A DNA stretch of 60,438 nucleotides from Dehalococcoidia bacterium (GTDB lineage Bacteria; Chloroflexota; Dehalococcoidia; Lucifugimonadales; UBA2985): NCBI GenBank assembly GCA_034421435.1, contig DAOUKJ010000037.1:1-60438 (forward strand), read 5' to 3'. The position numbers and the translations under genes were made by a program. Position 1 is the stretch's first letter; the number at the start of each line of letters is the position of its first letter. This document shows, one piece after another, positions 5,227-57,089 of this stretch. A model generated the notes under the pieces. The model did no database searches, was not told the DNA's origin, and worked only from the letters and a program-made list of their open reading frames with translations.

Positions 5227-7497
5227 CTAGCCGCCTGCGTCCTTCACCGCGCGGCGGTTGCGGAACAGGCCCGGCTCCACGAATGCGCTCGGCGAAGACG
5301 CGGCCTCGTCAATGACCTGCAACACGGACACGATAGCGGGGCTGTTCAGCAGCTGATCGCGCTTCTCCTGCGTGTCCGCCATAGGCTCGTAGCCCTCCAG
5401 CGACGCGTTCTGCCCGTCCAGTATCTCCGCCACCTTCATCAGAGCCTGCTCGATGTCGGCCTGGCTTATGACGTCGTGGAGTCTCCAGTTGGCCAGCACC
5501 GCGCTGTCGATACGCTCGGTGGCCCGGTCCTTCATCTCCTCCACCCGGTCGAAGTTCAGCACGCCGCTGCACCCTATGCCGCGGTTCACCCACGGCTCAG
5601 CGTAGGCCACCATGCTGTGGATATACCTCATGACCAGGCTCTCCTTCACGTCCGCGTTGGCCAGCTTGGAAGCGTCCAGCACAGGGAAGGACAGGAGCGC
5701 GTCCCTGCCGACGTTCTGCGCGGGCGCGTCCTCCATGGCCTGCTGAACCTCGTCCACGTCCACCATGTGATAGTGCATGGAGTGGAGGTCGCTGGGATAC
5801 GGAGCGGGCACCCACGCCGTATTGCCGCCGGTTCGAGGGTGGTCTATCTTCCTCTGGAGCATCTCCGCCATTGCGCGGTTCCTGACCTGCATGCCCTTAC
5901 CGATCTTGCCGCTCTTGTGGATGCCTGTCTGAATGCCCACGTTGACGTTGTGCCGCTCGTAGCTGGTATTGAACGTAGCGGCGGTAAGGTCGTCCCTCAG
6001 GTCGACTGGCCCGGCCTGCATCTGGACGCGAATCTGCGAGCCGGTGCGGTCCAGGAAGCCGGTGTTGATGAAGAACGTCCGGTCTTGCGAGGCCTTGAGC
6101 GCGTCCGAGAGCTGGAGGGTCATGCCGAGCTCCTCGTTCATGATGCCGATGAGGATTGTGCCCGACGCCAGGCCCAGCCGCTCCTCGATTGCCTCGAACA
6201 GCCTCATCTGCTCCGCGACCTCCTCCGCCGTACAGAGCTTGGGCGTGACCTGGTAGACGAATCCCCTGCTGCTGTTCGGCCCGCGGACAGGCAGGGCGCC
6301 CTCGCCGCCCTCTCTCGCCTCGCCGTTGGAGCCCTTGTCGTGCGACGTGGCTATGAGTGTGGTCAGCAGCAGGCCGACCATTCGCTCCGGCACCTCCTCG
6401 CCGTTGAGCGTGACCGCGTCGGTGTACATGTGCAGCGACACATTTCGCACGGACATCAGGCTGGTGCCCTTCAGCGTCTGGGCATTGCCGTCCGCGTCCG
6501 TATAGGTACGGTCGGAGTTGATGGTCTTGAGGTTGCCGCGGGAGCCGTAGGCCAGCAGGTCGCCCCGTATGACGCCAACGTAGTTGCGAAGCGCCGCCAC
6601 CTCGTCCTCCGCGTCGACGACAGTCACAGCGTCCTCGAAGTCGATGATGTTGGTGAGCGCGGACTCCACCACCAGGTCGCGGAACTGCCCGTTCCCGGAG
6701 TCGACTACGCCACCGTCGTAGAGCTGTATCTGGAGTCTGAGCCCGTTGTCCGAGAGGTAGAAGTCCGAAAGCTCCCCGTTATCGTCCAGGTTGAACCCGA
6801 CGAACTTCGACGGCTCCTGCAGCTTTGCCTGCCGCTCGTCGCGGGTGTGCGCTACCAGCTCGTACCGGCCGCCTTCACCGCGAGACACCGAGTACCGCCC
6901 GATGTCGTCGAACCGGACGCCTCCGTCCCATCCGGCCACGTGCTCGTCCAGGTAGGCGTTGGTCTCCTCAACCACCATCCGCAGCCGTGCGGGGCGCTGC
7001 TCGTCGCGGTCGATCTCCGGGTGCACGTCGCTGAGGAAGTAGGCGTCGTAGAGGCTGCCCCACCGGGCGTTTGCGCCGCCCACGACCATGCTGGCGTTGG
7101 TGACCGGCGTGACCAGCTCAGGGCCGTTCTGGTCCATCTCGGCGTCAAGCTGCGGCGTTGTCATGCGGAAGTCTACGGGGGCACTTGGGCTGAGGTAGCC
7201 GATGTCGATCATAAACCGCTCCAGGTCGGCGGCGTCCTGCGCGGCAGTCTCAGGCGTGGGGCGCCAGCCGCCGTTTCGCTTCTCGCGGTAGTAGTCGTCT
7301 ATCTTGCCCTGGACCTCCTCGCGCTTGGCCAGCAGCTCCCGGTTGCGCGGGCCAAACTGCTCCAAGAGGTCGCCCAGGATGCGAAACACCTCGTCGGCGG
7401 TGCGCCCGGTGCCCTCAACTGCCTCGTCCCTTACAAACTCGTATAGGCGATCGTTTACCTGAAGCGTGCCGCCGGAGTCCAAACTGATCTGTGCCAT
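5227..7497 (-). CDS. glcB: Malate synthase G (divergent)
   Basis: Motifs NARWGSLYDA, VRNV, INTGFLDRTG, GKGM, TAWVP, GIGCS and DRAT. AAGGAG RBS precedes ATG 7497; the ORF-track extension to 8148 overlaps the XRE gene. Confidence 0.88.
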   Translation of the reverse strand: MAQISLDSGGTLQVNDRLYEFVRDEAVEGTGRTADEVFRILGDLLEQFGPRNRELLAKREEVQGKIDDYYREKRNGGWRPTPETAAQDAADLERFMIDIGYLSPSAPVDFRMTTPQLDAEMDQNGPELVTPVTNASMVVGGANARWGSLYDAYFLSDVHPEIDRDEQRPARLRMVVEETNAYLDEHVAGWDGGVRFDDIGRYSVSRGEGGRYELVAHTRDERQAKLQEPSKFVGFNLDDNGELSDFYLSDNGLRLQIQLYDGGVVDSGNGQFRDLVVESALTNIIDFEDAVTVVDAEDEVAALRNYVGVIRGDLLAYGSRGNLKTINSDRTYTDADGNAQTLKGTSLMSVRNVSLHMYTDAVTLNGEEVPERMVGLLLTTLIATSHDKGSNGEAREGGEGALPVRGPNSSRGFVYQVTPKLCTAEEVAEQMRLFEAIEERLGLASGTILIGIMNEELGMTLQLSDALKASQDRTFFINTGFLDRTGSQIRVQMQAGPVDLRDDLTAATFNTSYERHNVNVGIQTGIHKSGKIGKGMQVRNRAMAEMLQRKIDHPRTGGNTAWVPAPYPSDLHSMHYHMVDVDEVQQAMEDAPAQNVGRDALLSFPVLDASKLANADVKESLVMRYIHSMVAYAEPWVNRGIGCSGVLNFDRVEEMKDRATERIDSAVLANWRLHDVISQADIEQALMKVAEILDGQNASLEGYEPMADTQEKRDQLLNSPAIVSVLQVIDEAASSPSAFVEPGLFRNRRAVKDAGG

Positions 7498-7782
7498 GAG
7501 TAGCTCCTTGCCGGTGAATTGTTGAACTATCGATTGCGACGCCTGGCGATGAGGCGCGGCGTCGCCGGAAGGGGCATGTGCGCGCCTGCCATTATCGCCC
7601 ATCACGCGAGCGGCCGCAACGGGTGTTGAGGGGTAGAGGCAGACTAAATCGGCTAGAAAACCCATCGGCAGGGTATAGAGCCAACTGGGCCGAGGAGAGT
7701 ATGATATGCTGACCGAGACACCTAAGTAGGTTGTTGCAGGCAAGGTTGCTCTACGTGCGTAACCTGGGGTGAGGAGAATTGC

Positions 7783-8964
7783 ATGACCGAGGCACTGGTT
7801 ACCCCCAATGTCCTGACTTGGGCGCGCCTCCGTCGCGGTCTCGACTCCGCCGCGTTGGCTGGCAAGCTGAACGTAAAGCCGGAGGCCGTACAGAACTGGG
7901 AATCCGGCGAACGAAGGCCAACGTTTCGGCAAGCACAGCAGCTTGCCAAGAACCTCTACATTCCTTTCGGCTACTTGTACCTGTCTGAACCTCCCGTGGA
8001 GGAACTGCCCATTCGGGATTTTCGAACTCTGTCTGGCCGTCCCCAAATGCCGCCAAGTGCAGACCTCTTGGACTTGCTCAACGATGTGCTCGGAAAGCAG
8101 CAGTGGATGCGCGAATTCCGGGAGGCAGAGGGCTTCGAGTCGCTTCACTTCGCGGGCCGCTTTCGGTCTACAGACCCGGTAAATGAGGTAGCGGCCGACA
8201 TCAGAGAAGTCATCCTCGTAGACGAAACTAGAAGGCAGGCTCCAAACTTCGAGGAGTTCTTGAGGCAGCTAATTCGTAACGCAGAAGCTGCGGGCATTAT
8301 GGTCATGCGGAGCGGTGTAGTAGGCAACAACAATAACAGGCGTCTAGATATAGAAGAGTTTCGTGGCTTTTCTGTAAGCGATAACCTCGCACCCTTGATC
8401 TTTATCAATAGCAAGGACTTCAAGGGAGCTCAGATCTTCACGTTTGCGCACGAGCTAGCGCACGTCTGGTCGGGGGAAGGGGGTATATCCAATCCTGACT
8501 ATGGTCTTCAGTCCGAAATTCAGGACGGCTCGGTCGAACGGTTCTGCGACAGGGTAGCTGCGGAAACCCTTCTGCCTAGCGAAGATGTGCTAGAGCAATG
8601 GGTGCCCGATGGCTCCAGCTTGGAATCGAAAGTCAAGAATCTAAGTGCCCGATACAAGGTAAGCGAAATGGTTGTATTGCGGCAAGCATATGACACCGGT
8701 TTCTTAGCGTCTTCTGCCTACAGGGAGGCCTTCGGCCAGCTCTTGAGCCGGTTCAGGTATTCGGAACCGTCGGGTGAACCTGGTGGGAACTTCCACAACA
8801 CCTTGCTTGCCAGAAACGGCAGTGCTTTCACCGCCGCTGTCGTTTCCAGTGCGTCCCAAGGGAGCCTGCTGAGTAGCAGGGCTGCGGACTTGCTTGGGGT
8901 AACCGTCAAGGCTCTTCCCGGAATAGCCAGGCACATGTTTGGGAGCCCCTTGAACCTTGGCTGA
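7783..8964 (+). CDS. XRE-family HTH fused to ImmA/IrrE (M78) metallopeptidase
   Basis: N-terminal HTH (LAGKLNVKPEAVQNWESGERRP), FAHELAH (HExxH) and ERFCDRVAAE. GAGGAG RBS. Confidence 0.9.
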   Translation: MTEALVTPNVLTWARLRRGLDSAALAGKLNVKPEAVQNWESGERRPTFRQAQQLAKNLYIPFGYLYLSEPPVEELPIRDFRTLSGRPQMPPSADLLDLLNDVLGKQQWMREFREAEGFESLHFAGRFRSTDPVNEVAADIREVILVDETRRQAPNFEEFLRQLIRNAEAAGIMVMRSGVVGNNNNRRLDIEEFRGFSVSDNLAPLIFINSKDFKGAQIFTFAHELAHVWSGEGGISNPDYGLQSEIQDGSVERFCDRVAAETLLPSEDVLEQWVPDGSSLESKVKNLSARYKVSEMVVLRQAYDTGFLASSAYREAFGQLLSRFRYSEPSGEPGGNFHNTLLARNGSAFTAAVVSSASQGSLLSSRAADLLGVTVKALPGIARHMFGSPLNLG

Positions 8965-9448
8965 CTACTGGATCGATAGCAGCGTGTTCATTGAGGGGAA
9001 GAAGGGGCCCTATGGGTTCGACATTGCGCCTAGGTTCTGGAGTCTTCTAGACGACATGATAGCTGACGCACGCATAACGTGCCCAATCAGAGTTTACGAT
9101 GAATTACGCAGTGTTCCGGACGAACTGAAAGATTGGGGCCAAGCGAGGAGAGAGTCGGGTTTATTCGTTGAACCCAGCGCTGTGGTGCAGAAGGCGTTTG
9201 CGACGATTGTCGAATACGTCACTCAGCACTATCCGGACAACCAAGATAGACGCAGGTTCCTCGACCGCGCAGACCCTTGGCTGATTGCTCACGCAATGGC
9301 CCAAGGAGGCACAGTTGTCACTTTGGAGGGGAGGGTTACGGGTATTTCCCAACAGGTTAGAATCCCCAACGTCTGCGATCAGTTCAGTATTCGCTGCATC
9401 ACCACTTATGACATGCTGCGGGAGCTGGGGGCATCGTGGAACAGCTGA
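8957..9448 (+). CDS. DUF4411-like PIN-fold protein
   Basis: YWIDSSVFI, ADPWLIAHA, VVTLE and RIPNVC motifs. The TTG start overlaps the upstream gene by 8 nt. Confidence 0.85.
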   Translation: MADYWIDSSVFIEGKKGPYGFDIAPRFWSLLDDMIADARITCPIRVYDELRSVPDELKDWGQARRESGLFVEPSAVVQKAFATIVEYVTQHYPDNQDRRRFLDRADPWLIAHAMAQGGTVVTLEGRVTGISQQVRIPNVCDQFSIRCITTYDMLRELGASWNS

Positions 9449-9552
9449 GGCGTTGTAGAAACACGCCGTGATTGACAGTATGGCAGTTCGTTGGCAAAGG
9501 GAGATGCTCCCCCCTACGATAGACTGCTCTTTCGCAAGCTCCGACTTCGCAA

Positions 9553-10077
9553 CTAGATCGGTGAGCCGGTCATCCCCTGCATCCCGCGGATGAGCCACAT
9601 TTCGCCCAGGTGGCTGAACCCGTGGGTCAACACGTTCTCCATCAGCACCTGCGTCGCAGAACGCTCGCCCATCGGCCGGACGGTGAAGATGCGCTCCAGG
9701 TCTGCGTCCGTGATCGACGCCAGATAGTCTTCCGAGGACTGCCAGACCGCGCGCATGTACGGCAGGAACTCCTCGATGGACGGGAGACGCAAGGCAGCTG
9801 CGTCCTCCGCGCTCATGCCGGTTCCCTGTGCCACCCGCTCCAGTCCGAACTTCTCGTGCCAGCCATCCTCCAGCCACACCGGCGGCCGCCGTTCCTGCAG
9901 CACGAAGCGCACCAGGTTGTCCTCCGTGCGCACGTAGTGCCACAGCACGAAGGCGAGGTGGATGCCGCCTCCGGGCGGCTGCCAGTGGAGCTGCTCAGGC
10001 GTAAGGTCGGTGGTGGCGGTCTCGAGGGCCTCGTGCAGGCGTTCCAGGTGTGAGCCGATCAGCTCTACGATAGCCAT
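9553..10077 (-). CDS. DinB/YfiT-superfamily protein
   Basis: Four-helix pattern with metal His triad (LWHY, THGFSH). Confidence 0.82.
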   Translation of the reverse strand: MAIVELIGSHLERLHEALETATTDLTPEQLHWQPPGGGIHLAFVLWHYVRTEDNLVRFVLQERRPPVWLEDGWHEKFGLERVAQGTGMSAEDAAALRLPSIEEFLPYMRAVWQSSEDYLASITDADLERIFTVRPMGERSATQVLMENVLTHGFSHLGEMWLIRGMQGMTGSPI

Positions 10078-10957: not shown

Positions 10958-11251
10958 GTTCACGTCCTCCGTTCTTGGGAAAGCTGCACATATCCTATCG
11001 GCATATCTCAACCGCGTCCATGCTTGTTGAGGCTCTTGTTCCGCGGTGCAGTCGCAGGGCTACGGGGTGCAACGGCGGTAAGAAAGAGCCGGAGGAAGTA
11101 GGAGGAATCTGAAATTGAAGTCATCCCACGCTTGGGCAACCAATGGGAATGATATACGATAGTACCAGAGATCCCAAGGGAGAGGGCATCAACCAAACCA
11201 CCATAGGCGGAGGGCGTGGGGGTGAGTTCTTCGGGGCCTAGGGAGAGATAT

Positions 11252-12040
11252 ATGACGCACGACGAAGAGATTGCTACAGCGCGGCCGTTCGGACGCGAAG
11301 AGGTAGTGTACCAAGCCGTTCTGGATGGGCGCTTGCAGGTAGACGAACGGGGCAGGGTGTGGCGGGCTGAGGGGCGACGTGGCGAGAGGCCTGCGCACGG
11401 GGGGAAATACTGGCGGGTTACGGTTAGTGTGAAGGGCAGGTTGCGCAACACCCTGTCGCACAGGTTAGTGTGGTTCCACACATACGGAAGGATACCTGAC
11501 GGCTTAGTCGTGAATCACAGGGATGGAAATGGTCTGAACAACGACCCGCAGAATCTCGAACTCGTCACTCATGGGGAGAATAGCAAGCATAGGTACCATA
11601 TACTAGGACGGCAGAACCTGACGAAGGAAGTTGTAGATAGAGGGCGTCGGGATTCCACCTTCGCGTTGCGTAAAAGCCAGGCCTATAGAAGAATGAGCCC
11701 TCAGGCGGGTCTCCAACTAGACACCCTTCGACAAGGAGCCTTGGCAGCAGTGGAGGACACCACCAAGGGAGCGGTGTACGGATGGTTAGACAACCACAAG
11801 GACGTTCTCGCGGAGCTTCTGGAGGAGCACAGTCCTAACCAAGTAGCGGCCGCCCTGGAACTGAATCTGAACACGCTCAACGGCTGGCGCCGGCGTCGCG
11901 GGCTGCAGAGGGCGGGAACTCATATGACGCGCTGCGGCGGCGCGGAGGATGGTAATGCGAGAGGACATGGGCAAGGGTCTCTTCAGGGACTAAGCTCAGT
12001 CAGGAGAGAATTACGATTATGGGCGATTTGGCAAGCCTAG
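11252..12040 (+). CDS. Phage-type HNH endonuclease with C-terminal HTH-like segment
   Basis: HRLVW...VNHRDGNGLNNDPQNLELVTHGENSKH (HNH motif) and SPNQVAAALELNLNTLNGW. GGAGAG RBS. Codon usage is more AT-rich than the neighbours. Confidence 0.8.
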   Translation: MTHDEEIATARPFGREEVVYQAVLDGRLQVDERGRVWRAEGRRGERPAHGGKYWRVTVSVKGRLRNTLSHRLVWFHTYGRIPDGLVVNHRDGNGLNNDPQNLELVTHGENSKHRYHILGRQNLTKEVVDRGRRDSTFALRKSQAYRRMSPQAGLQLDTLRQGALAAVEDTTKGAVYGWLDNHKDVLAELLEEHSPNQVAAALELNLNTLNGWRRRRGLQRAGTHMTRCGGAEDGNARGHGQGSLQGLSSVRRELRLWAIWQA

Positions 12041-12105
12041 ACTTGGCCAACGAGAATGTTTGCAGCGTCCGCGTCTGTACAGACTTTATGGAATAGCGCT
12101 GAGCA

Positions 12106-13086: not shown

Positions 13087-14212
13087 TGCGCTTCCCTCCC
13101 GTGAGCGCGGCCACCGCGCGGGCGGTTGCCACCTCTATTCGGTGCAGTGTGTCGGCAGCTCCGTTCTGCGACGGCGCAAGCTCGAAGACTCGCTCAATCC
13201 CAATCGCGGACGCGCCGTCAGCGCCCAGTGCATCGCTTCCAACGATGGCGGCCACCTCCGGCCTGCCGTGCTCCCTCGCCATAGCTGCCACGCCGCAGAC
13301 TCCCTTGCCCGAGAGCGTCTGAGCGTCAAGCCGTCCCTCGCCCGTCAGCACCAGGTCCGCGCCCGCCAGCGAGTCCGCTAGGCGCACCGCCTCGCTCACC
13401 ACCTCGAATCCCGGTCTCAGCGATGCGCCGCAGAACACGACGAGCCCTGCACCGAGCCCGCCGGAAGCCCCGGCTCCGGGCATGTCACGCACGCTCAGCC
13501 CCACCTGCTCGCTAACCACATCCGCAAAGCGGCCTAGCGCAGCGTCCAGCGCCTCGATCTGTTCGGGTGTTGCTCCCTTTTGTGGCCCGAACACGGCTGA
13601 GGCGCCATCCGGTCCGCACAGGGGGTTGGTCACGTCGCAGAGCGCGGTCACGCTCGTCGCGGACAGTGCGGCATGCGCGGCCTCGCGATCAATGGAGGCG
13701 AGACACGCAAGGGCAGCGCCTCCCTTCGGCAAGTCACAGCCGCCATCGTCCAGCGCTCGAAAGCCGAGAGCCTGTGCCATGCCCGCGCCGGCGTCATTGG
13801 TGGCGGAATCGCCCAGGCCGACCAGAATTCTCCGGTGGCCGCCGTCCAGAGCAGCCCGGATGAGGTCTCCGGTGCCGCGGGTTGTCGTAACGGTCGGATC
13901 GCGCTCTGAGTCCTCGAGAAGCGCAAGGCCGGAGGCAGCCGCGGTCTCGATGACCGCCGTCTCGCCGTCGCCGAGCACGCCCCAGCGCGCGTGGATTGGA
14001 CGGCCCAGCGGGTCGGCGGCCGGCGACGTGACCCAGCGTCCGCCTGTGGCAGTCACCAGCGCGTCAACCGTGCCGCCGCCGCCGTCCGCAATAGGTATGA
14101 CGGCCACGTCCGAGTCCGGCGCGACGCTCAACACGCCGCGGCGCATGGCCTCCGCCGCATCGGCGGCAGACGCCGTGCCCTTGAACGCCTGTGGAGCCAC
14201 CACAATCCTCAT
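13076..14212 (-). CDS. glxK: Glycerate kinase (GlxK/GarK family)
   Basis: Motifs APQAFKGT, ADGGGGT, GLGDSATNDAG, CDVTNPLCG, FGPQKGA and TGEGRLDAQT. Confidence 0.9.
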   Translation of the reverse strand: MRIVVAPQAFKGTASAADAAEAMRRGVLSVAPDSDVAVIPIADGGGGTVDALVTATGGRWVTSPAADPLGRPIHARWGVLGDGETAVIETAAASGLALLEDSERDPTVTTTRGTGDLIRAALDGGHRRILVGLGDSATNDAGAGMAQALGFRALDDGGCDLPKGGAALACLASIDREAAHAALSATSVTALCDVTNPLCGPDGASAVFGPQKGATPEQIEALDAALGRFADVVSEQVGLSVRDMPGAGASGGLGAGLVVFCGASLRPGFEVVSEAVRLADSLAGADLVLTGEGRLDAQTLSGKGVCGVAAMAREHGRPEVAAIVGSDALGADGASAIGIERVFELAPSQNGAADTLHRIEVATARAVAALTGGKRNGR

Positions 14213-34490: not shown

Positions 34491-34513
34491 AGCTTCCGCT
34501 CAATGCCGTTTGT

Positions 34514-34666
34514 CGCGCCCGCTCATATCCTTCGACCAGGCTCAGGATGAGCGGGCGCGGTGTTTGGCGTATCCACACCGCCCAAATGGTTCGACAGGCT
34601 CACCACGAGCGGTGCGATGTGGCCCGTCCCTTCCCCATCGATGAGGGAAGGTTGGGATGGGGGTGA
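34514..34666. repeat. Mosaic REP-like cassette (three palindromic modules)
   Basis: CCGCTCAT-..CCTTCGACCAGGCTCAGG-ATGAGCGG; CACCGC..TGGTTCGACAGGCTCACC..GCGGTG; CCCTTCCCCATCGATGAGGGAAGGTTGGGATGGGGGTGA. Confidence 0.8.
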
Positions 34667-34669
34667 ACG

Positions 34670-35641
34670 CTAACGCACCAGTCCCCGTCGAAGACCTAGC
34701 TTCTCGCGAAACTCCTCCGGTATGGAGTCCCATCTGTCAACGAGCAGGTCTACTAGTTGGCGCCCGTCTATAAGACCAATGCGTGGGAAGCCAGGCTCAA
34801 CGGCGATCTCCCTTGCCTTGGCTGGATAGCTGGCCGTCGTAATGAGTGCCCCCTGCCCATCCCTCGGTATGGATCCTCGGAACTCCCGCACGGTCTTCGC
34901 GCTCACTCTCGTTCCCTGCTTGTACCGCTTAGCCTGAACGAACAGCTTGACCTTGGCCAAGCCCGCCAGGTCGAGCTCTCCCATTACGTCCACGCCACCG
35001 TCGCCTGTCTTCCCAGTAACCTCGGTCTCTTCAAAGCCCAGGGCCGCTAGCAGGCTCTCTACCAGTTCCTCAAACTCGCCGGGAGCAAGCTCGAGAATCT
35101 GGTCCAGCACTACCCTGTACGGGTCTGCGGCTGTGGGCCTTGCCTTTGAGATCGACGCACCCGCTCCAACCCTGGAAAGGAACTCCTCGACGTGCGAGAC
35201 TGAGAACACAGTTTTCATCGCGCGGACAGTCTGTTGGAACGGTATGGAGAGTTCCGAGCGTCTGATGCGTGGCTCGGCCCAATCAACGTTCCAGCGATGA
35301 GGATATGGACAGCCGTCGGCGGCGTTCGGAGCGTAGTAGTAGGTGCCATCAGCCGGCACACGGCCGTAGTGCAGCCACTCAGTGTTGGCGGGAGGCGTAA
35401 TCACATAATCTCCTGGCTTGATGTCAAGGATAAATGCGGCTATTTGGCCTTGGTGGTTCCGGATGCGGCCGGTGTTCCTCAACGCTGGGTAAGCCTTCCA
35501 GAGCATATCCTGAACTTCCTCTCTGGATTGAACACCACTAAGGTCTGGAACAGCAAGCCACTCTATTCCGGCGTAGCCCCCATCCAGAAAGCGCTGCGCG
35601 TACTTCCCACCGTCAGCTCGTATGCACCACACTCTCACCAT
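34670..35641 (-). CDS. Mrr-like type IV restriction endonuclease
   Basis: C-terminal FEELV...GDGGVDV...VQAKRY (Mrr-type PD-(D/E)xK). N-terminal WCIRA...GIEW domain. More AT-rich. Confidence 0.85.
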   Translation of the reverse strand: MVRVWCIRADGGKYAQRFLDGGYAGIEWLAVPDLSGVQSREEVQDMLWKAYPALRNTGRIRNHQGQIAAFILDIKPGDYVITPPANTEWLHYGRVPADGTYYYAPNAADGCPYPHRWNVDWAEPRIRRSELSIPFQQTVRAMKTVFSVSHVEEFLSRVGAGASISKARPTAADPYRVVLDQILELAPGEFEELVESLLAALGFEETEVTGKTGDGGVDVMGELDLAGLAKVKLFVQAKRYKQGTRVSAKTVREFRGSIPRDGQGALITTASYPAKAREIAVEPGFPRIGLIDGRQLVDLLVDRWDSIPEEFREKLGLRRGLVR

Positions 35642-35718
35642 CCGTGCCTCCTCAATCCTTCTCTATGGATAATTCATTCCAATGGGTGAATTTCCCACTT
35701 TGTCGACGACTCTTGCCC

Positions 35719-47207: not shown

Positions 47208-48125
47208 TCAGCAGGCCGGCAGGCCCAATTGGTCCAAGTCGCTATTCTCTACACCTCTTAGCGCATCCGGCACGCATCCGCTCAGATTGTTGAAACCCAT
47301 AGCCAACTCTTCCAGGTTGGTGAGGTTGCCCAGCTCAGCCGGTATCTCTCCGCTCAGCTGGTTGCCACTGAGATACAGTCGTTCCAGGTTGGAGAGTTGG
47401 CCCAGCTCAGCGGGTATGTCTCCGCTCAGCTGGTTGCCACTGAGATACAGTCGTTCCAGGTTGGAGAGTTGGCCTAGCTCAGCGGGTATCTCCCCACTCA
47501 ACCGGTTCCCATAGAGGTACAACTCTGTCAGCTTAGAGAGCCGGCCCAACTCCGAGGGTATAGTGCCGGTCAATTCGCCGCCCCCTTCATCGTTGCCGCT
47601 TAGATCCAAGAGCTCCAGGTTGGAGAGGTCGCCCAATTCCGGTGGAATCTCTCCGCTCAACAAGCTATTGCCGAGTCCCAACCACATCAGGTTGGCCAGG
47701 CTTCCCAACTCCGCGGGTATCTCTCCCTTCAAACCGAAACCGTAGAGCTCCAACCTTATGACGCGTCCGTCCTCGTCAGTGGTAACTCCGTACCATTCCC
47801 CGATTGCATCATCACTCAACCAGTTGTCTTCTTGAAAGTCCCACGGCCTCCAGTTGGCTCCATCCATCGCGTTATAGATGCTGACCAGTGCCTCCCTATC
47901 CGTTTCGGCGGAACCCTGGGCGGGCACGGACATGGATTCCGGTGTCATCGCAGCCGTCGATTCGGGCGCGTCGGTTGTCGGCTCGGGAGGGGCCGTGGCC
48001 CTTTCTGGCGTAGATGTAGAAGCGGCTCGTTCAGCAGTGGGCGACGCGGAAGGCTCTTCAGAGCTGCAAGCGAGGAGGACCAGCAGAAGCATAGAGACGG
48101 TGGTCCACCTGGTCATCAGGCGCAC
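47208..48125 (-). CDS. Leucine-rich-repeat lipoprotein with plant-type 24-aa LRRs
   Basis: Lipobox LLAC, Pro/Thr/Ala linker, N-cap ETDREALVSIYNAMDGANW...WYGVT, and repeats LxxLxLsgNqLSGeIPaELG. Start is GTG 48125 or ATG 48116. Confidence 0.88.
   Translation of the reverse strand: MRLMTRWTTVSMLLLVLLACSSEEPSASPTAERAASTSTPERATAPPEPTTDAPESTAAMTPESMSVPAQGSAETDREALVSIYNAMDGANWRPWDFQEDNWLSDDAIGEWYGVTTDEDGRVIRLELYGFGLKGEIPAELGSLANLMWLGLGNSLLSGEIPPELGDLSNLELLDLSGNDEGGGELTGTIPSELGRLSKLTELYLYGNRLSGEIPAELGQLSNLERLYLSGNQLSGDIPAELGQLSNLERLYLSGNQLSGEIPAELGNLTNLEELAMGFNNLSGCVPDALRGVENSDLDQLGLPAC
47331..47474. repeat. 72-bp tandem duplication within the LRR gene
   Basis: Units 47331-47402 and 47403-47474 differ at 2 of 72 positions. 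Confidence 0.92.
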
Positions 48126-48164
48126 TTTACCCACCTCCAGTCATGAGTATGAAGGCTATCGGGT

Positions 48165-52663: not shown

Positions 52664-53374
52664 ATGGCCGACCCCAAGGCCCAGCAGGACTGCCACTACG
52701 CACGCCTGGGTGAGGTGGACTACACCGAGGCGTGGAACATGCAATCGGCCATTGCCCGCCGCAGGGCTGACGGCGAGATACCGGACTACCTGCTGCTCCT
52801 GGAGCACCCGCACACGTACACGCTCGGCCGTCGCGCGGTCATCGATGAGGTGCTGGCGAGCAACGCCGCGCTGGAGCGGCTGGGCGCGCGCGTCGTGCAC
52901 GCAGACAGGGGCGGGCTGGTCACCTACCACGGCCCCGGCCAGATTGTGGGCTACCCCATAGTGGACGTCCGCCATATCGGCGGCCCGCGGGGCTACGTAT
53001 GCGCGCTGGAGGAGGTGGTCATCCTCACGCTCAATGACTTTGGCCTTGCCGCCGAAAGGATACCGGACCTGATTGGTGTGTGGGTCGGAGACGTGAAGGT
53101 CGCCTCCATAGGGGTGCGGATAAGCCGGGGCATATCCACCCACGGCTTCGCGCTGAACGTGAGCACCGACCTGTCCTACTTCCGCCACATCGTGCCCTGC
53201 GGGATGCCGGGCGCGGTGGTCGGCAGCATGGAGAGCCTGCTGGGGGCGCCGGTCGACAAAGACTTGGTGGCGGAGCGGCTGGTGCACCACTTCGGGAGCC
53301 GGCTGCGCAGGACGATGGTGGAGGTGGCACCGGAGACTCTCGGCACGCGGGCTGTAGCTGGAACGCAGGCCTAG
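52664..53374 (+). CDS. lipB: Lipoyl(octanoyl) transferase
   Basis: Motifs LLEHPHTYTLG, DRGGLVTYHGPGQ, KVASIG and HGFALN...IVPCG. Confidence 0.93.
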   Translation: MADPKAQQDCHYARLGEVDYTEAWNMQSAIARRRADGEIPDYLLLLEHPHTYTLGRRAVIDEVLASNAALERLGARVVHADRGGLVTYHGPGQIVGYPIVDVRHIGGPRGYVCALEEVVILTLNDFGLAAERIPDLIGVWVGDVKVASIGVRISRGISTHGFALNVSTDLSYFRHIVPCGMPGAVVGSMESLLGAPVDKDLVAERLVHHFGSRLRRTMVEVAPETLGTRAVAGTQA

Positions 53375-55551
53375 GAGCGGCCGCTCTCGCCCGCTGAGAC
53401 CAGAAGCTCCTGCCGGTGGCCCCAGCGCTTCAGGAACCGGCGGAAGTTGACCATGCTCAGCTCCTCTCGCTCATCCTCCGACAGGCTTGTCCACACCCGG
53501 TGCTCGTGGCGCTGCAACGGCAGCGAGGAGAGCGCCATCAGGCGGTAGCCCTTCTCCAGGAAGCAGAAGCTGTACTCCAGGTCCAGGTTGCGGTAGAAGC
53601 GGAAGCTCTCCCGCATCAGGTCCACCTCCGGGAGCAGCGCCCTCTTGAACGCGAAGCAGTACGCCTGGATCGCGTCCGCCCGGCCCTCGTCGATCTCCTC
53701 GAAGTGGCGCAGGTCGTCGGTACGCAGCCCCCACGGGCCTGCCGCTCCCACGCCATCCTCGGCCAGCGCGCCGGCGATGGGCGACAGGAAGTCCTCCGTG
53801 GCCTCCACGGACGTGTCCATGAGCACGACGTAGGTGCCCAGGCACTGCTTGAGCAGGATGTTCTTGGCCGCCGCCTCGCCCAGGACGTGGTCGGCGTGGA
53901 TCACCCTCACCCGCGGGTCCTCGCCCGCCTTCTCCTCCAGCCACGCGGAGGTGCCGTCCGTGGAGCCGTTGTCGACGACTACGACCTCCAAGGGGTGCCT
54001 CTCGCCCAGCGCCAGCAGGCTGTCGATGCACCGCTGCACGTCGCCAAGGTAGTTGCACGCCACGATGCCCACGGAGAACTCCAGCCTGTCAGGCTCGTCC
54101 AGCAGCGACGATACGTCACGCGATGACGAAACCTCCGGCCACCGCTCCGTGCGCCGCTCCAGCTCCGACTTGGGGCGGGCGCGTGTCCCCGCGGTCGCGT
54201 CTTCCAGGATGTAGCCGTCTTCACCCACGCTGCGCCGCACGGCGTCCGCCTCCGGGTAGTTCTGCCGCGCCCTCAGCTCCGACCTGCGCGCCTGCGCCGC
54301 CGATACGTGCTCCGGCACGCTCCACGACTCCACCGATCCGGCGAGTCCCAGCCCCAGTACGCCGTCGAACTCCAGCAGCAGCGTCAGCTTGGCGTGGTCC
54401 GGCAGGCCGGAGCGCGTCATTGCCCACGTCAGGGCCAGCGCGCCGGGCATGTCCAGGTCATCGTTCACGCGGCCTAGGAACGCCTGCCTCCACTGCTCCA
54501 CGTCGGCGTCCACGCCGTCAGCCGCGCCGAGCGCGGACGACCACTCCCACACGCGGTTCCGCAGGCGCTGCAGGCCGCGCTGCGCCGCGCGGAGCGCTGA
54601 GAACGTGAAGTTGAGACGGGAGCGGTAGCGGACGGTGAGGCAAAGGTACCGAAACGCCATCGGGTCAAAGCAGCGGCTCTCCAGGTCCTCCAGCGTGTAG
54701 TCGTTCGCCGTAGACTTGGACATCTTCACGCCGTCCGCCAGCAGGTGCTGGCCGTGCACCCACGTACGAACGAACGGCCCTCCGAACGCGCCCTCGCTCT
54801 GTGCGCGCTCGCCCTCGTGGTGCGGGAACACGTTGTCCACGCCGCCGGTGTGGATGTCCAGCCGCTCGCCCAGGTACCTCGTGGACATGGCGGAGCACTC
54901 AATGTGCCAGCCGGGGAAGCCGTCGCCCCACGGGCTGGGCCAGAACAGCACTCTGCCCGGCTCGGCCGCCTTCCACAGCGTGAAGTCGCGCGGGTCATGC
55001 TTCAGAGGGTCGGTCTCCGCCCTCACGCCTTCAAGCAGGTCGCCGCCGATGTTGCCGGACAGACTACCGTAGTCCGGAAAGCGGGACACGGAGAAGTAGA
55101 CGTTGCCCTCTACCTCGTAGGCGTAGCCCCGCTCCATGAGCCGCTCCGTGATACGGGCCATCTCGTCGACGTGGTCCGTGGCGCGCGGGAAGTGTGTGGC
55201 GGGCAGGATGCCCAGCTTGGCCTCGTCCCTGTGGAATGCCTCCTCGTAGAAGTCCGCAATCTCCCGGGGCGTCTTGCCCTCCGCCAGTGCGGATGCGATG
55301 ACCTTGTCTTCGCCGCGCTCCAGCATCTCCTGGCGCATATGGCCTACATCGGTTATATTCTTTACGTGGACTACGCTCAGGCCCTGCGCCTCCAGGCCAC
55401 GGCGGATCCAGTCGGCCATGAGGTACGTCCGCAGGTTGCCAATGTGCGCGTGGCGGTAGACCGTGGGGCCGCAGCTGTACATTCGCACCAGCCCCGGCTC
55501 AAGGGGCTGGAAAGGCTCCACACTGCGGGAGAGGGTGTTGAAGAGTCGCAT
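53371..55551 (-). CDS. cysS: Cysteinyl-tRNA synthetase fused to a C-terminal GT2-fold domain
   Basis: CGPTVY..AHIGN, WHIECSAM, FPHHE, KMSKS, NDDLD and an anticodon-binding domain, followed in frame by VVVVDNGSTDG...LMDTS (53371-54080). Confidence 0.92.
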   Translation of the reverse strand: MRLFNTLSRSVEPFQPLEPGLVRMYSCGPTVYRHAHIGNLRTYLMADWIRRGLEAQGLSVVHVKNITDVGHMRQEMLERGEDKVIASALAEGKTPREIADFYEEAFHRDEAKLGILPATHFPRATDHVDEMARITERLMERGYAYEVEGNVYFSVSRFPDYGSLSGNIGGDLLEGVRAETDPLKHDPRDFTLWKAAEPGRVLFWPSPWGDGFPGWHIECSAMSTRYLGERLDIHTGGVDNVFPHHEGERAQSEGAFGGPFVRTWVHGQHLLADGVKMSKSTANDYTLEDLESRCFDPMAFRYLCLTVRYRSRLNFTFSALRAAQRGLQRLRNRVWEWSSALGAADGVDADVEQWRQAFLGRVNDDLDMPGALALTWAMTRSGLPDHAKLTLLLEFDGVLGLGLAGSVESWSVPEHVSAAQARRSELRARQNYPEADAVRRSVGEDGYILEDATAGTRARPKSELERRTERWPEVSSSRDVSSLLDEPDRLEFSVGIVACNYLGDVQRCIDSLLALGERHPLEVVVVDNGSTDGTSAWLEEKAGEDPRVRVIHADHVLGEAAAKNILLKQCLGTYVVLMDTSVEATEDFLSPIAGALAEDGVGAAGPWGLRTDDLRHFEEIDEGRADAIQAYCFAFKRALLPEVDLMRESFRFYRNLDLEYSFCFLEKGYRLMALSSLPLQRHEHRVWTSLSEDEREELSMVNFRRFLKRWGHRQELLVSAGESGRS

Positions 55552-55728: not shown

Positions 55729-56586
55729 GTGACGGCGCCCGGCACACATGGGACCACCCGCTGCGGCCCCCTGACGCTCGAATGGGGAAGCCGCACGTAC
55801 GTCATGGGCATTGTGAACGTGACGCCGGACTCCTTCTCAGGCGACGGCCTCGCCCATGACGCAGACGCGGCCCTGGAGCAGGCCCTGCGCTTCCAGGCGG
55901 AAGGAGCGGACATCATCGACGTGGGCGGCGAGTCCACGCGGCCCGGTCACACGCCCGTGAACGCCGACGAGGAGATTCGACGCGTCGTTCCTGTCATTCG
56001 GCTGCTGGCCTCGCGCCTGCACGTTCCCATCAGCGTGGACACTTACAAGCACGACGTGGCGCACGCGGCCCTGGCTGCAGGCGCATCCATGATCAACGAC
56101 GTGTGGGGTCTCAAGCGCGATCCCGCCCTGGCGGAGCTGGCCTCCCGCGAAGGCGTGCCAATCGTGCTAATGCACAACCAGGCCGGTACAGCCTACACAG
56201 ACCTGCTCCCGGACGTGATTGTGAGCCTCCGCACAAGCATGGACACCGCGCTCGGCGCGGGCGTCCCGCCCGAGAGCATCATACTCGATCCAGGCCTGGG
56301 GTTCGGCAAGACCGCCGAATACAACCTGGAGCTGCTGCGAAGGCTCTCGGAGCTTACGACGCTCGGGCGGCCACTTCTGGTGGGTTCCTCCCGCAAGTCC
56401 ACCATAGGGCTGGTGCTGGACCTACCCGTCGAGGAGCGGCTGGAGGGGACGGCTGCCACAGTCGCTATCGCCATCGCGAACGGTGCGGACGTCGTTCGCG
56501 TCCACGACGTGAAGGTCATGACGCGCGTGGCCAGGATGAGCGACGCGGTGGTCAGGGGTTGGACTGCCCCGGCGGGCGGCGCGTGA
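55729..56586 (+). CDS. folP: Dihydropteroate synthase
   Basis: Motifs MGIVNVTPDSFSGDG, GGESTRPG, DPGLGFGK, SRKS and VRVHDV. Confidence 0.95.
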   Translation: MTAPGTHGTTRCGPLTLEWGSRTYVMGIVNVTPDSFSGDGLAHDADAALEQALRFQAEGADIIDVGGESTRPGHTPVNADEEIRRVVPVIRLLASRLHVPISVDTYKHDVAHAALAAGASMINDVWGLKRDPALAELASREGVPIVLMHNQAGTAYTDLLPDVIVSLRTSMDTALGAGVPPESIILDPGLGFGKTAEYNLELLRRLSELTTLGRPLLVGSSRKSTIGLVLDLPVEERLEGTAATVAIAIANGADVVRVHDVKVMTRVARMSDAVVRGWTAPAGGA

Positions 56587-57089
56587 CGACGGTCAAAGCC
56601 TACCTCGGGCTGGGGTCGAACCTCGGCGACCGGGAGCATAACCTGGAGCGCGCCGTATCACTTCTGGAGCGCGTGGCCGCGCCGGTGGTCGTGTCGTCCG
56701 TATACGAGACGCGGCCCTGGGGCTACGTCGACCAGCCGGACTTCCTCAACCTGGCGTGCCGCGTGGAGACCGCGCTGTCTCCGGAGGAGCTGCTTGGGGC
56801 GGCGCAGGCAGTGGAGGTACTCATCGGGCGGGAGCCTACGTTTCGCTACGGCCCAAGGATAATCGACGTGGACATCCTACTATACGGCGACCTCATCATC
56901 AATGTCGATGGCCTGCGCGTGCCGCATCCAAGTCTGTTCGAAAGGGCGTTCGCGCTAGCTCCGCTGGCCGAAATCGCCCCCGAGTTGGTTCACCCGGAGC
57001 TGGGCACGTCGATTCGGATGCTGTTGGCCCGGCTGCCGCGCGCGGAGCGGGATGGCGTGTCACTGTTTGGACCGCTGCTTCGCCGCTAG
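56583..57089 (+). CDS. folK: 6-hydroxymethyl-7,8-dihydropterin pyrophosphokinase
   Basis: Motifs LGLGSNLGDR, QPDFLN, GPRIIDVDIL and PHP..ERAF. Start overlaps the folP stop (GTGA). Confidence 0.95.
   Translation: MTTVKAYLGLGSNLGDREHNLERAVSLLERVAAPVVVSSVYETRPWGYVDQPDFLNLACRVETALSPEELLGAAQAVEVLIGREPTFRYGPRIIDVDILLYGDLIINVDGLRVPHPSLFERAFALAPLAEIAPELVHPELGTSIRMLLARLPRAERDGVSLFGPLLRR

Follow-up and report, generated by a model that had tools for sequence, protein, structure and literature searches.

The stretch of DNA analysed here (the window) comprises the 60,438 nucleotides of contig DAOUKJ010000037.1 of a Dehalococcoidia bacterium (GCA_034421435.1; Chloroflexota), and it carries a gene in which a cysteinyl-tRNA synthetase (CysRS) is joined to a glycosyltransferase (GT) domain of the GT-A fold. 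The gene appears in the list of open reading frames (ORFs) as a single uninterrupted frame of 726 amino acids (aa) with an ATG start, located at window positions 53371-55551 on the minus strand, and Pfam and NCBIfam scans together with the 120 best homologues define it as a fusion of the CysRS, its anticodon-binding domain (ABD), a linker and the GT-A domain, in that order; all parts described below lie on the same strand. One 726-aa frame holding a full CysRS and a GT domain had been described in an earlier note on this DNA, and the ORF list, the Pfam matches and the NCBIfam model TIGR00435 agree with that description.

The catalytic (Rossmann/CP/SC-fold) region of the CysRS occupies aa 1-335 (54547-55551), as defined by a match to the Pfam family tRNA-synt_1e (PF01406; aa 14-324, E 4e-93) and by alignment of the CysRS part to the PDB chains 8qhp, 6ujd, 3sp1, 3tqo and 1li5. 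Both class I signatures are in place, HIGN at aa 36 (55435-55446) and KMSKS at aa 276 (54712-54726), and both are invariant in the 74 full-length fusions, one per species, that made up our conservation set. The zinc ligands, identified by alignment to E. coli CysRS (1li5) as C27 (E. coli C28), C219 (C209), H244 (H234) and E248 (E238), are likewise invariant in the alignment of fusions. A helical-bundle (DALR-like) region follows at aa 336-404 (54340-54546), placed by the E. coli CysRS alignment and by the helices of an AlphaFold2 (AF2) model (H349-399). The NCBIfam equivalog model for cysS, TIGR00435, is matched over aa 1-458 with 391.2 bits, above its cutoff of 340, while the model for MshC, TIGR03447, reaches only 211.5 bits against a cutoff of 485.1, placing the protein among the CysRS enzymes and outside the MshC family.

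After an invariant KNITDV, the fusion carries an 11-residue insertion, GHMRQEMLERGED, at aa ~70-82 (55306-55344), which is absent from the CysRS of E. coli and Coxiella and from that of 8QHP, and present in a shorter version in 6UJD and 3SP1. An insertion at this place is typical of the PRK14536-like CysRS subtype. It is invariant across the fusions, is modelled with low confidence by AF2, and the peptide KNITDVGH is specific enough to pull out the fusion family. Otherwise E. coli CysS (1LI5, 1U0B) has the same catalytic domain (HIGH/KMSKS, zinc ligands C/C/H/E), the same helical bundle, an alpha/beta ABD and the same numbering of the residues that contact G34, but it is without the ~265 extra C-terminal residues of the fusion (linker and GT-A domain). 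At the sequence level, the CysRS part has every catalytic and tRNA-recognition feature, and the gene product is probably a working, and probably the housekeeping, cysteinyl-tRNA synthetase. CysRS paralogues are common in bacteria (PMC5388404).

The ABD (CysS_C; aa 405-461, 54169-54339) could be placed by its E. coli numbering and by residue conservation. Residues R423, R427, Y432 (W432 in E. coli), D436, R439 and D451 have numbers identical to those of E. coli CysRS and are invariant or nearly so among relatives. In the E. coli structure 1U0B, G34 of the GCA anticodon is contacted by R427, D436, W432 and R423 (PMC12684709). The correspondence to E. coli of the CysRS motifs, zinc ligands and anticodon residues, which the earlier note had pointed out, was reproduced in the 1li5 alignment. 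Between the ABD and the GT domain lies a linker at aa 462-489 (54085-54168), consisting of a short helix and a conserved 'vSSSxEVxSLLDEPD' segment; it is conserved in both the fusion and the wider alignments and modelled by AF2 with a pLDDT of ~90, and is predicted to be structured rather than a floppy tether. An AF2 model of aa 405-726 (ABD, linker and GT), for which fused and free homologues were aligned together, reached a pLDDT of 93.9 and a pTM of 0.85, with the GT part above 95. The full-length model, built on a shallow alignment, had a pLDDT of 78 overall, still exceeding 90 in the ABD-linker-GT region. The ABD, linker and GT domain are hence predicted to form one rigid body.

The GT-A (GT2-like) domain spans aa 490-716 (53404-54084), as delimited by Pfam, AF2, Foldseek and profile alignments. 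It matches Glycos_transf_2 (PF00535) at aa 493-613 with an E-value of 1.6e-22 and 80.7 bits (gathering cutoff 23.3). Foldseek retrieved as best matches the polypeptide N-acetylgalactosaminyltransferases ppGalNAc-T2, T1 and T3 (family GT27), followed by the bacterial GT2 structures 6P61, 5HEA, 2Z86 and 6YV7, and assigned the GT-A fold with a probability of 1.00 to GT27 and GT2 structures over ~260 aligned columns (root mean square deviation ~3 A, E ~1e-13). No membrane segment was found in the domain. The nucleotide-binding motif DNGSTD is located at aa 527 (53956-53973). In a profile-to-PDB alignment the 'DAD' of 6P61 corresponds to D579-T-S581, part of the segment D579-T-S581-V-E583 (53803-53817), showing that the canonical DxD is replaced by DxS; position 581 is Ser in 63, Gly in 9 and His in 2 of the 74 fusions. 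Both the DNGSTD motif and the D579-T-S replacement had been named in the earlier note, and motif search and alignments led us to the same residues. The earlier note had also read the ED catalytic-base motif as R654-N655. This reading proved to be an alignment shift of two residues, since in the profile alignment 'WGGED' of the chondroitin polymerase K4CP falls on 'YRNLD' (Y653-R-N-L-D657, 53581-53595), so that ED corresponds to L656-D657. By this alignment, D657 is the counterpart of the catalytic-base Asp of ED, TED and GGED motifs, and it is invariant in all 74 fusions as well as in 18/18 stand-alone homologues (described below).

Further towards the C-terminus, the His of the K4CP 'AYHQ' aligns to H682, within H682-E-H684-R-V-W (53491-53508), and H682 also aligns to the C-terminal His region of the Mn2+ site of GT27 type. 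D579, E583, R637, D657 and H682 are each kept in 71-74 of the 74 fusions; H684 is kept in all of them but in only 15/18 stand-alone genes. E583, R637, Y653, R654, H684, R695, S699 and N702 are invariant or nearly invariant residues specific to this family. Compared to characterized GT2 and GT27 enzymes (2FFU/4D0T, 2Z86, 6P61, 5HEA), the domain thus shares the GT-A fold, a DxGS-type motif, the Asp of ED/GGED and a C-terminal His, but differs in the Ser at the second metal ligand, in its extra invariant residues, in the ABD that precedes it and in having no lectin or membrane domain. It does not belong to GT27, as the His of the DxH motif is Ser in most members and the protein ends ~10 residues past the GT-A domain with no lectin domain. 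The D-x-[SH]-x-E pattern of the domain resembles the 'D-S-H-C-E' motif of ppGalNAc-T.

Among the fusions, the catalytic region is on average 67% identical to that of the window protein, the GT domain 46-52%, the helical bundle 40% and the ABD 30%. Since the GT domain exceeds both the bundle and the ABD in identity, it is under strong purifying selection, more so than these two regions, and is not decaying. Its N-terminal, donor-binding half is acidic (isoelectric point, pI, ~4.7), whereas the C-terminal half on the acceptor side is basic, with a pI of 8.0 in the fusions and 9.6 in the free forms. This charge pattern is more in line with an enzyme that touches a short stretch of RNA than with an appendage that binds RNA generically. 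The last ten residues of the protein (aa 717-726; 53371-53403 with the stop codon) form a variable tail by alignment, with a pLDDT below 50. While this tail is plain in the window protein, many homologues, both fused and stand-alone, carry short His/Asp-rich tails (HDHDDDHDDHD, HHHHAHH) after a conserved 'DLL', examples being P0013, P0020, P0061, P0138 and P0188. These tails might be a metal-binding feature or low-complexity drift.

The fusion is widespread. At least 598 relatives were found in a scan of one genome per species, and the fusion was present in 78/80 of the best species-genome loci, being essentially full length in 75 and cut by a contig end in 3. Carriers belong to Dehalococcoidia/SAR202, Ktedonobacterales, Chloroflexia/Roseiflexaceae, metagenome-assembled genomes (MAGs) labelled Anaerolineae, and Candidatus Dormibacterota. 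All 120 best homologues (61-95% identity), drawn from NCBI, ENA, JGI and Logan sources, were fusions or fragments of the fusion with both Pfam domains in every one; 116 measured 700-757 aa, one 994 aa, and P0025 is a 551-aa piece. The occurrence of the same fusion in these homologues and in the 78 species loci rules out an assembly or chance artefact. A recent merger of what are two separate genes in relatives had been considered in the earlier note, as had a GT domain unconnected to CysRS elsewhere; relatives instead show one gene, and the GT homologues are tied to CysRS domains. Public databases contain hundreds of family members, whose annotation reads only 'cysteine--tRNA ligase' or 'glycosyltransferase'.

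Two irregular sets of sequences were seen in this survey. On one 9717-bp ENA contig, P0416 (338 aa) and P0418 (405 aa), which fall in the 90% cluster of the fusion P0026, represent the fusion split in two ORFs, reflecting either a frameshift error of the assembly or a very recent fission. Moreover, full-length fusions of ~50% identity were present in MAGs labelled Candidatus Bathyarchaeia archaeon (L048) and 'bacterium' (L042 and L055), which are probably mis-binned contigs of Chloroflexota or Dormibacterota rather than archaeal occurrences.

The GT domain also exists apart from the synthetase core. With this domain as the sole query, an exhaustive HMMER search of 1.84 billion cluster representatives gave 82 matches below 1e-30, beyond which only generic GT2 N-terminal halves matched the query. 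Many of the specific matches were proteins of 300-340 aa whose first ~55 residues match Pfam CysS_C (PF23493), and every N-terminally complete member of the subfamily was either fused to a full CysRS or carried CysS_C alone. Whether the GT domain always accompanies a CysRS or its ABD, a question raised in the earlier note, can therefore be answered in the affirmative for N-terminally complete homologues. At the DNA level we inspected 85 loci (L081-L165), 5 obtained by exact-protein look-up and 80 by a metagenome scan with a 6-sequence alignment. An in-frame CysRS catalytic domain was found directly upstream in 52 of them, 15 were too short to tell, and 18 were stand-alone, defined as at least 1.3 kb of upstream sequence without any CysRS catalytic domain. 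Most of these 18 genes have an in-frame stop just upstream of the ABD, and one of them is from the cultured Ktedonospora formicarum (WP_220194942.1); the free forms are otherwise mostly metagenomic, with the assigned examples being Chloroflexota.

R423, R427, the aromatic residue at 432, D436, G446 and D451 of the ABD are present in 18/18 stand-alone genes and 29/29 cluster representatives. In the GT domain, E583, R637, D657, H682, R695, S699 and N702 are kept in all 18, and D579 and S581 in 17/18. The free forms must descend from a fusion because their ABD is of CysRS origin, and in a neighbour-joining tree without support values they fall among the fusions in two or more groups, which tentatively suggests repeated fission. 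They have discarded the cysteine-activating core and kept the anticodon reader. Since the free forms keep the ABD and drop the catalytic core, the obligatory partner of the GT-A domain would be tRNA(Cys) recognition, not cysteine activation.

Some candidates were set aside in the course of this comparison. About 15 'GT-only' clusters without an ABD were considered as counter-examples; most of them start inside the ABD or linker or at non-ATG codons on short contigs, and they are probably truncated gene calls. P0129 was likewise rejected as a stand-alone gene, as it clusters at 90% with a fusion of 751 aa, and some short database proteins are truncated fusions. A search with the C-terminal 119 aa of the stand-alone protein P0138 returned short fragments only and was uninformative on architecture.

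The best explanation of these observations, which we put forward tentatively, is that the ABD-GT module works as a glycosyltransferase directed at tRNA(Cys), in the vicinity of the anticodon loop. The C-terminal ABD would be shared between the CysRS and a second enzyme domain of GT-A fold; it would dock the module onto the anticodon of tRNA(Cys), and the GT domain would transfer a sugar from a donor of nucleotide-sugar type to an acceptor positioned beside the anticodon. D527 and D579-x-S581 would bind the donor and D657 would act as catalytic base, and D579, E583, H682 and H684 may provide an unusual metal site. The likeliest acceptor would be a nucleotide within the anticodon stem-loop of tRNA(Cys), with the sugar placed on a ribose hydroxyl or on a substituent of the base. 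In the fusion, one polypeptide would then both charge and modify tRNA(Cys), and in the stand-alone form the modifier would work in trans beside a separate CysRS. Because the ABD and the GT domain are predicted to be rigidly connected, with the ABD on the anticodon, glycosylation in or next to the anticodon loop is the most economical proposal.

Glycosylation of the tRNA anticodon by dedicated glycosyltransferases is established in mammals, where QTGAL (B3GNTL1) and QTMAN (GTDC1) add a sugar to an anticodon-loop nucleotide (PMC11755703). These eukaryotic enzymes differ from the present family in acting on Q34 of tRNA(Tyr) and tRNA(Asp), a nucleotide not carried by tRNA(Cys), and in having no synthetase-derived anticodon reader. 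From the obligatory association with the ABD and the rigid ABD-GT model we infer that the present domain may be an anticodon-loop glycosyltransferase of this type; B3GNTL1 itself is classed as GT2. The nearest functional analogy would be GluQRS (YadB), a paralogue of GluRS that attaches glutamate to Q34 of tRNA(Asp) and in which a piece of a synthetase is reused for anticodon-loop modification. It is a mirror image of the stand-alone ABD-GT protein, since in GluQRS the catalytic domain of the synthetase has remained and the ABD is gone, whereas the stand-alone form keeps the ABD and combines it with an unrelated catalytic fold.

Several observations speak against a tRNA(Cys) glycosyltransferase. 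We know of no glycosylated nucleoside in bacterial tRNA(Cys). In 63/74 fusions a Ser takes the place of the second Asp of DxD, the closest structures found by Foldseek are protein O-glycosyltransferases and not RNA enzymes, and the nucleotide-binding D527 is kept in only 7/18 stand-alone genes, with Ala in 10/18, so that donor binding may be altered or lost in the forms without it. Moreover, neither fusion nor stand-alone loci contain a conserved partner gene for sugar-nucleotide metabolism or tRNA modification, an NTP_transferase gene in Ktedonospora being the sole exception.

If the module is active on RNA, it would represent the first enzymatic glycosylation of a bacterial tRNA, would yield a new modified nucleoside and would link sugar-nucleotide metabolism to the decoding of cysteine codons in environmental bacteria of high abundance, among them SAR202 and the Ktedonobacteria and Dormibacterota of soil. 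It is possible, although we consider it doubtful, that ABD-GT proteins form an unrecognised class of bacterial tRNA-modification enzyme that places a sugar on tRNA(Cys) to give an uncatalogued nucleoside, and that this enzyme was built into CysRS in Chloroflexota and Dormibacterota. The appendages acquired by aminoacyl-tRNA synthetases usually serve editing or general RNA binding, and a GT fold conserved on the anticodon reader of a single synthetase across phyla is unusual. The free-standing form suggests that the anticodon domain of a synthetase is transferable and can direct a different enzyme to its target, and even an inactive GT domain would be a new kind of synthetase accessory domain. 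No description of a CysRS-glycosyltransferase fusion was found in the full-text literature, including surveys of Cys-encoding systems and of synthetase evolution, most subscription journals being outside this search.

One alternative is a pseudo-glycosyltransferase, in which the GT-A domain would have lost sugar transfer. According to this explanation, which we regard as unlikely but as the most serious of the alternatives, the GT domain is a structural or regulatory appendage of the ABD, for example a nucleotide or nucleotide-sugar sensor that tunes the binding or charging of tRNA(Cys), and the free ABD-GT protein would bind or sequester tRNA(Cys). The degradation of DxD to DxS, the loss of D527 in 10/18 stand-alone genes, where the DNGSxDGT motif as a whole is poorly kept, and the missing partner genes are all in line with it, and as the ABD and GT domain pack as one unit, the GT domain could merely stabilise or extend the ABD. 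However, D657, E583 and H682, and less strictly H684, are kept in every lineage, including stand-alone forms at ~35% identity, conservation is higher in the GT domain than in the ABD that it is supposed to 'support', and its net charge of about -10 is unlike that of known tRNA-binding appendages.

A different site on the same substrate has to be weighed as well, namely that Cys-tRNA(Cys) is captured through its anticodon and that its thiol is glycosylated or its Cys moved to a sugar-bearing acceptor, which would give a tRNA-dependent route to a Cys-sugar compound, for example a low-molecular-weight thiol. The association specifically with tRNA(Cys) would suit this, and so would the dispensability of D527 in the stand-alone forms, as expected if no nucleoside-diphosphate sugar is used as donor. 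GT2 S-glycosyltransferases exist, SunS and ThuS among them. A DinB-family gene in the window (9553-10077, minus strand), which matches DinB_2 (E 1.6e-17) and the Pfam family Mycothiol-S-transferase (28.8 bits, cutoff 27), hints at some thiol cofactor; its presence had been reported in the earlier note, yet it lies 43 kb from the fusion and is linked to it in no related locus. The anticodon is ~70 A from the CCA end, and a rigid ABD-GT module at the anticodon would be in a poor position to act on the aminoacyl group. A known CysRS-derived enzyme of sugar chemistry, MshC (the Cys:GlcN-Ins ligase of mycothiol synthesis; 3C8Z, 8HFM), likewise ties a CysRS-derived catalytic domain to a sugar and aligns to aa 1-375, but it is without the ABD, whereas in the present family the ABD is always kept and the catalytic domain can be lost. 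MshA, which handles the sugar in the same pathway as MshC, has the GT-B fold (GT4), not GT-A. As the obligatory partner of the GT domain seems to be anticodon recognition, an MshC-like thiol function is weakened and an activity directed at tRNA(Cys) is favoured. Hence, of the two functions proposed in the earlier note, the role directed at tRNA(Cys) gained support from the constant retention of the ABD, while the channelling of activated Cys onto a sugar lost ground: the stand-alone forms have no Cys-activating domain, the MshC cutoff was missed, no conserved thiol-pathway genes surround fusion or stand-alone loci, and the DinB-family gene is distant. Action at the aminoacyl end is in our judgement improbable.

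Marginally less probable still is a glycosyltransferase with a protein or metabolite as acceptor that is regulated by tRNA(Cys), with the tRNA or its charging state serving as an allosteric signal of cysteine supply. The best structural matches of the domain are indeed polypeptide glycosyltransferases (ppGalNAc-T, CgT/GalT1), its catalytic constellation is conserved, and the ABD is kept in all forms. There is, however, no candidate acceptor and there are no linked genes, and we know of no precedent for a tRNA-regulated glycosyltransferase, so that this explanation needs more assumptions than direct action on the bound RNA. Finally, many GT2 enzymes are promiscuously fused and pipelines annotate the gene simply as 'cysteine--tRNA ligase', but an incidental fusion of an ordinary envelope or polysaccharide GT2 enzyme to cysS, or an assembly or stop-loss artefact, is effectively refuted by conservation across at least two phyla and at least 598 species, by retention of the ABD after fission, apparently in two or more independent groups, by the presence of a CysRS-derived domain in every N-terminally complete protein of the subfamily, and by the lack of both a membrane segment and an envelope-gene context.

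In the window, the fusion gene is located among housekeeping genes. It shares its last 4 bases with the 3' end of lipB (52664-53374, plus strand), a convergent gene, and folP-folK lie on the other side of the fusion. Clustering of the ORFs from the 80 species loci and the window revealed no conserved operon partner of the fusion. The commonest neighbours were Peptidase_S51 (19 loci), GFO/IDH/MocA (16) and MeaB (15), which reflect lineage synteny and not a shared operon; a missing operon partner is usual for synthetase genes. The stand-alone loci similarly have no shared neighbourhood, only lineage synteny (rhomboid, cupin, DUF3352). No tRNA gene was found near the fusion in the window, and a single tRNA-Thr in 60 loci. 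At the Ktedonospora formicarum locus (L081), a gene for an NTP_transferase/ManC-like sugar-1-phosphate nucleotidylyltransferase (6671-7753, plus strand) is positioned directly upstream of the ABD-GT gene (8001-8990), in the same orientation. This enzyme could supply the sugar-nucleotide donor; such a neighbour was not seen at the other stand-alone loci.

Elsewhere in the window, no ORF passing the GC3 filter was found in gaps of 1.1-1.4 kb at 8149-9552, 11012-12105, 13087-14190 and 34491-35643, and the GC content dips to 0.57 at 8001-10000 compared to ~0.65 elsewhere. A 308-aa leucine-rich-repeat protein (47208-48134, minus strand) has as its only NCBIfam matches the leucine-rich-repeat regions of XopAC, XopAE and XopL and internalin A, all far below the cutoffs; matches of this type III effector-like kind are unexpected in a free-living Chloroflexota-like genome. 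The dihydropteroate synthase gene (55729-56586, plus strand), followed by folK (56580-57089, plus strand), passes the model TIGR01496 with 300 bits, and its best NCBIfam match is to Sul4, a variant that confers sulfonamide resistance, with 317 bits, short of the cutoff of 600. The sul4 gene has reportedly been mobilised from a Chloroflexota folP, an idea with which the match of the window gene is in agreement.

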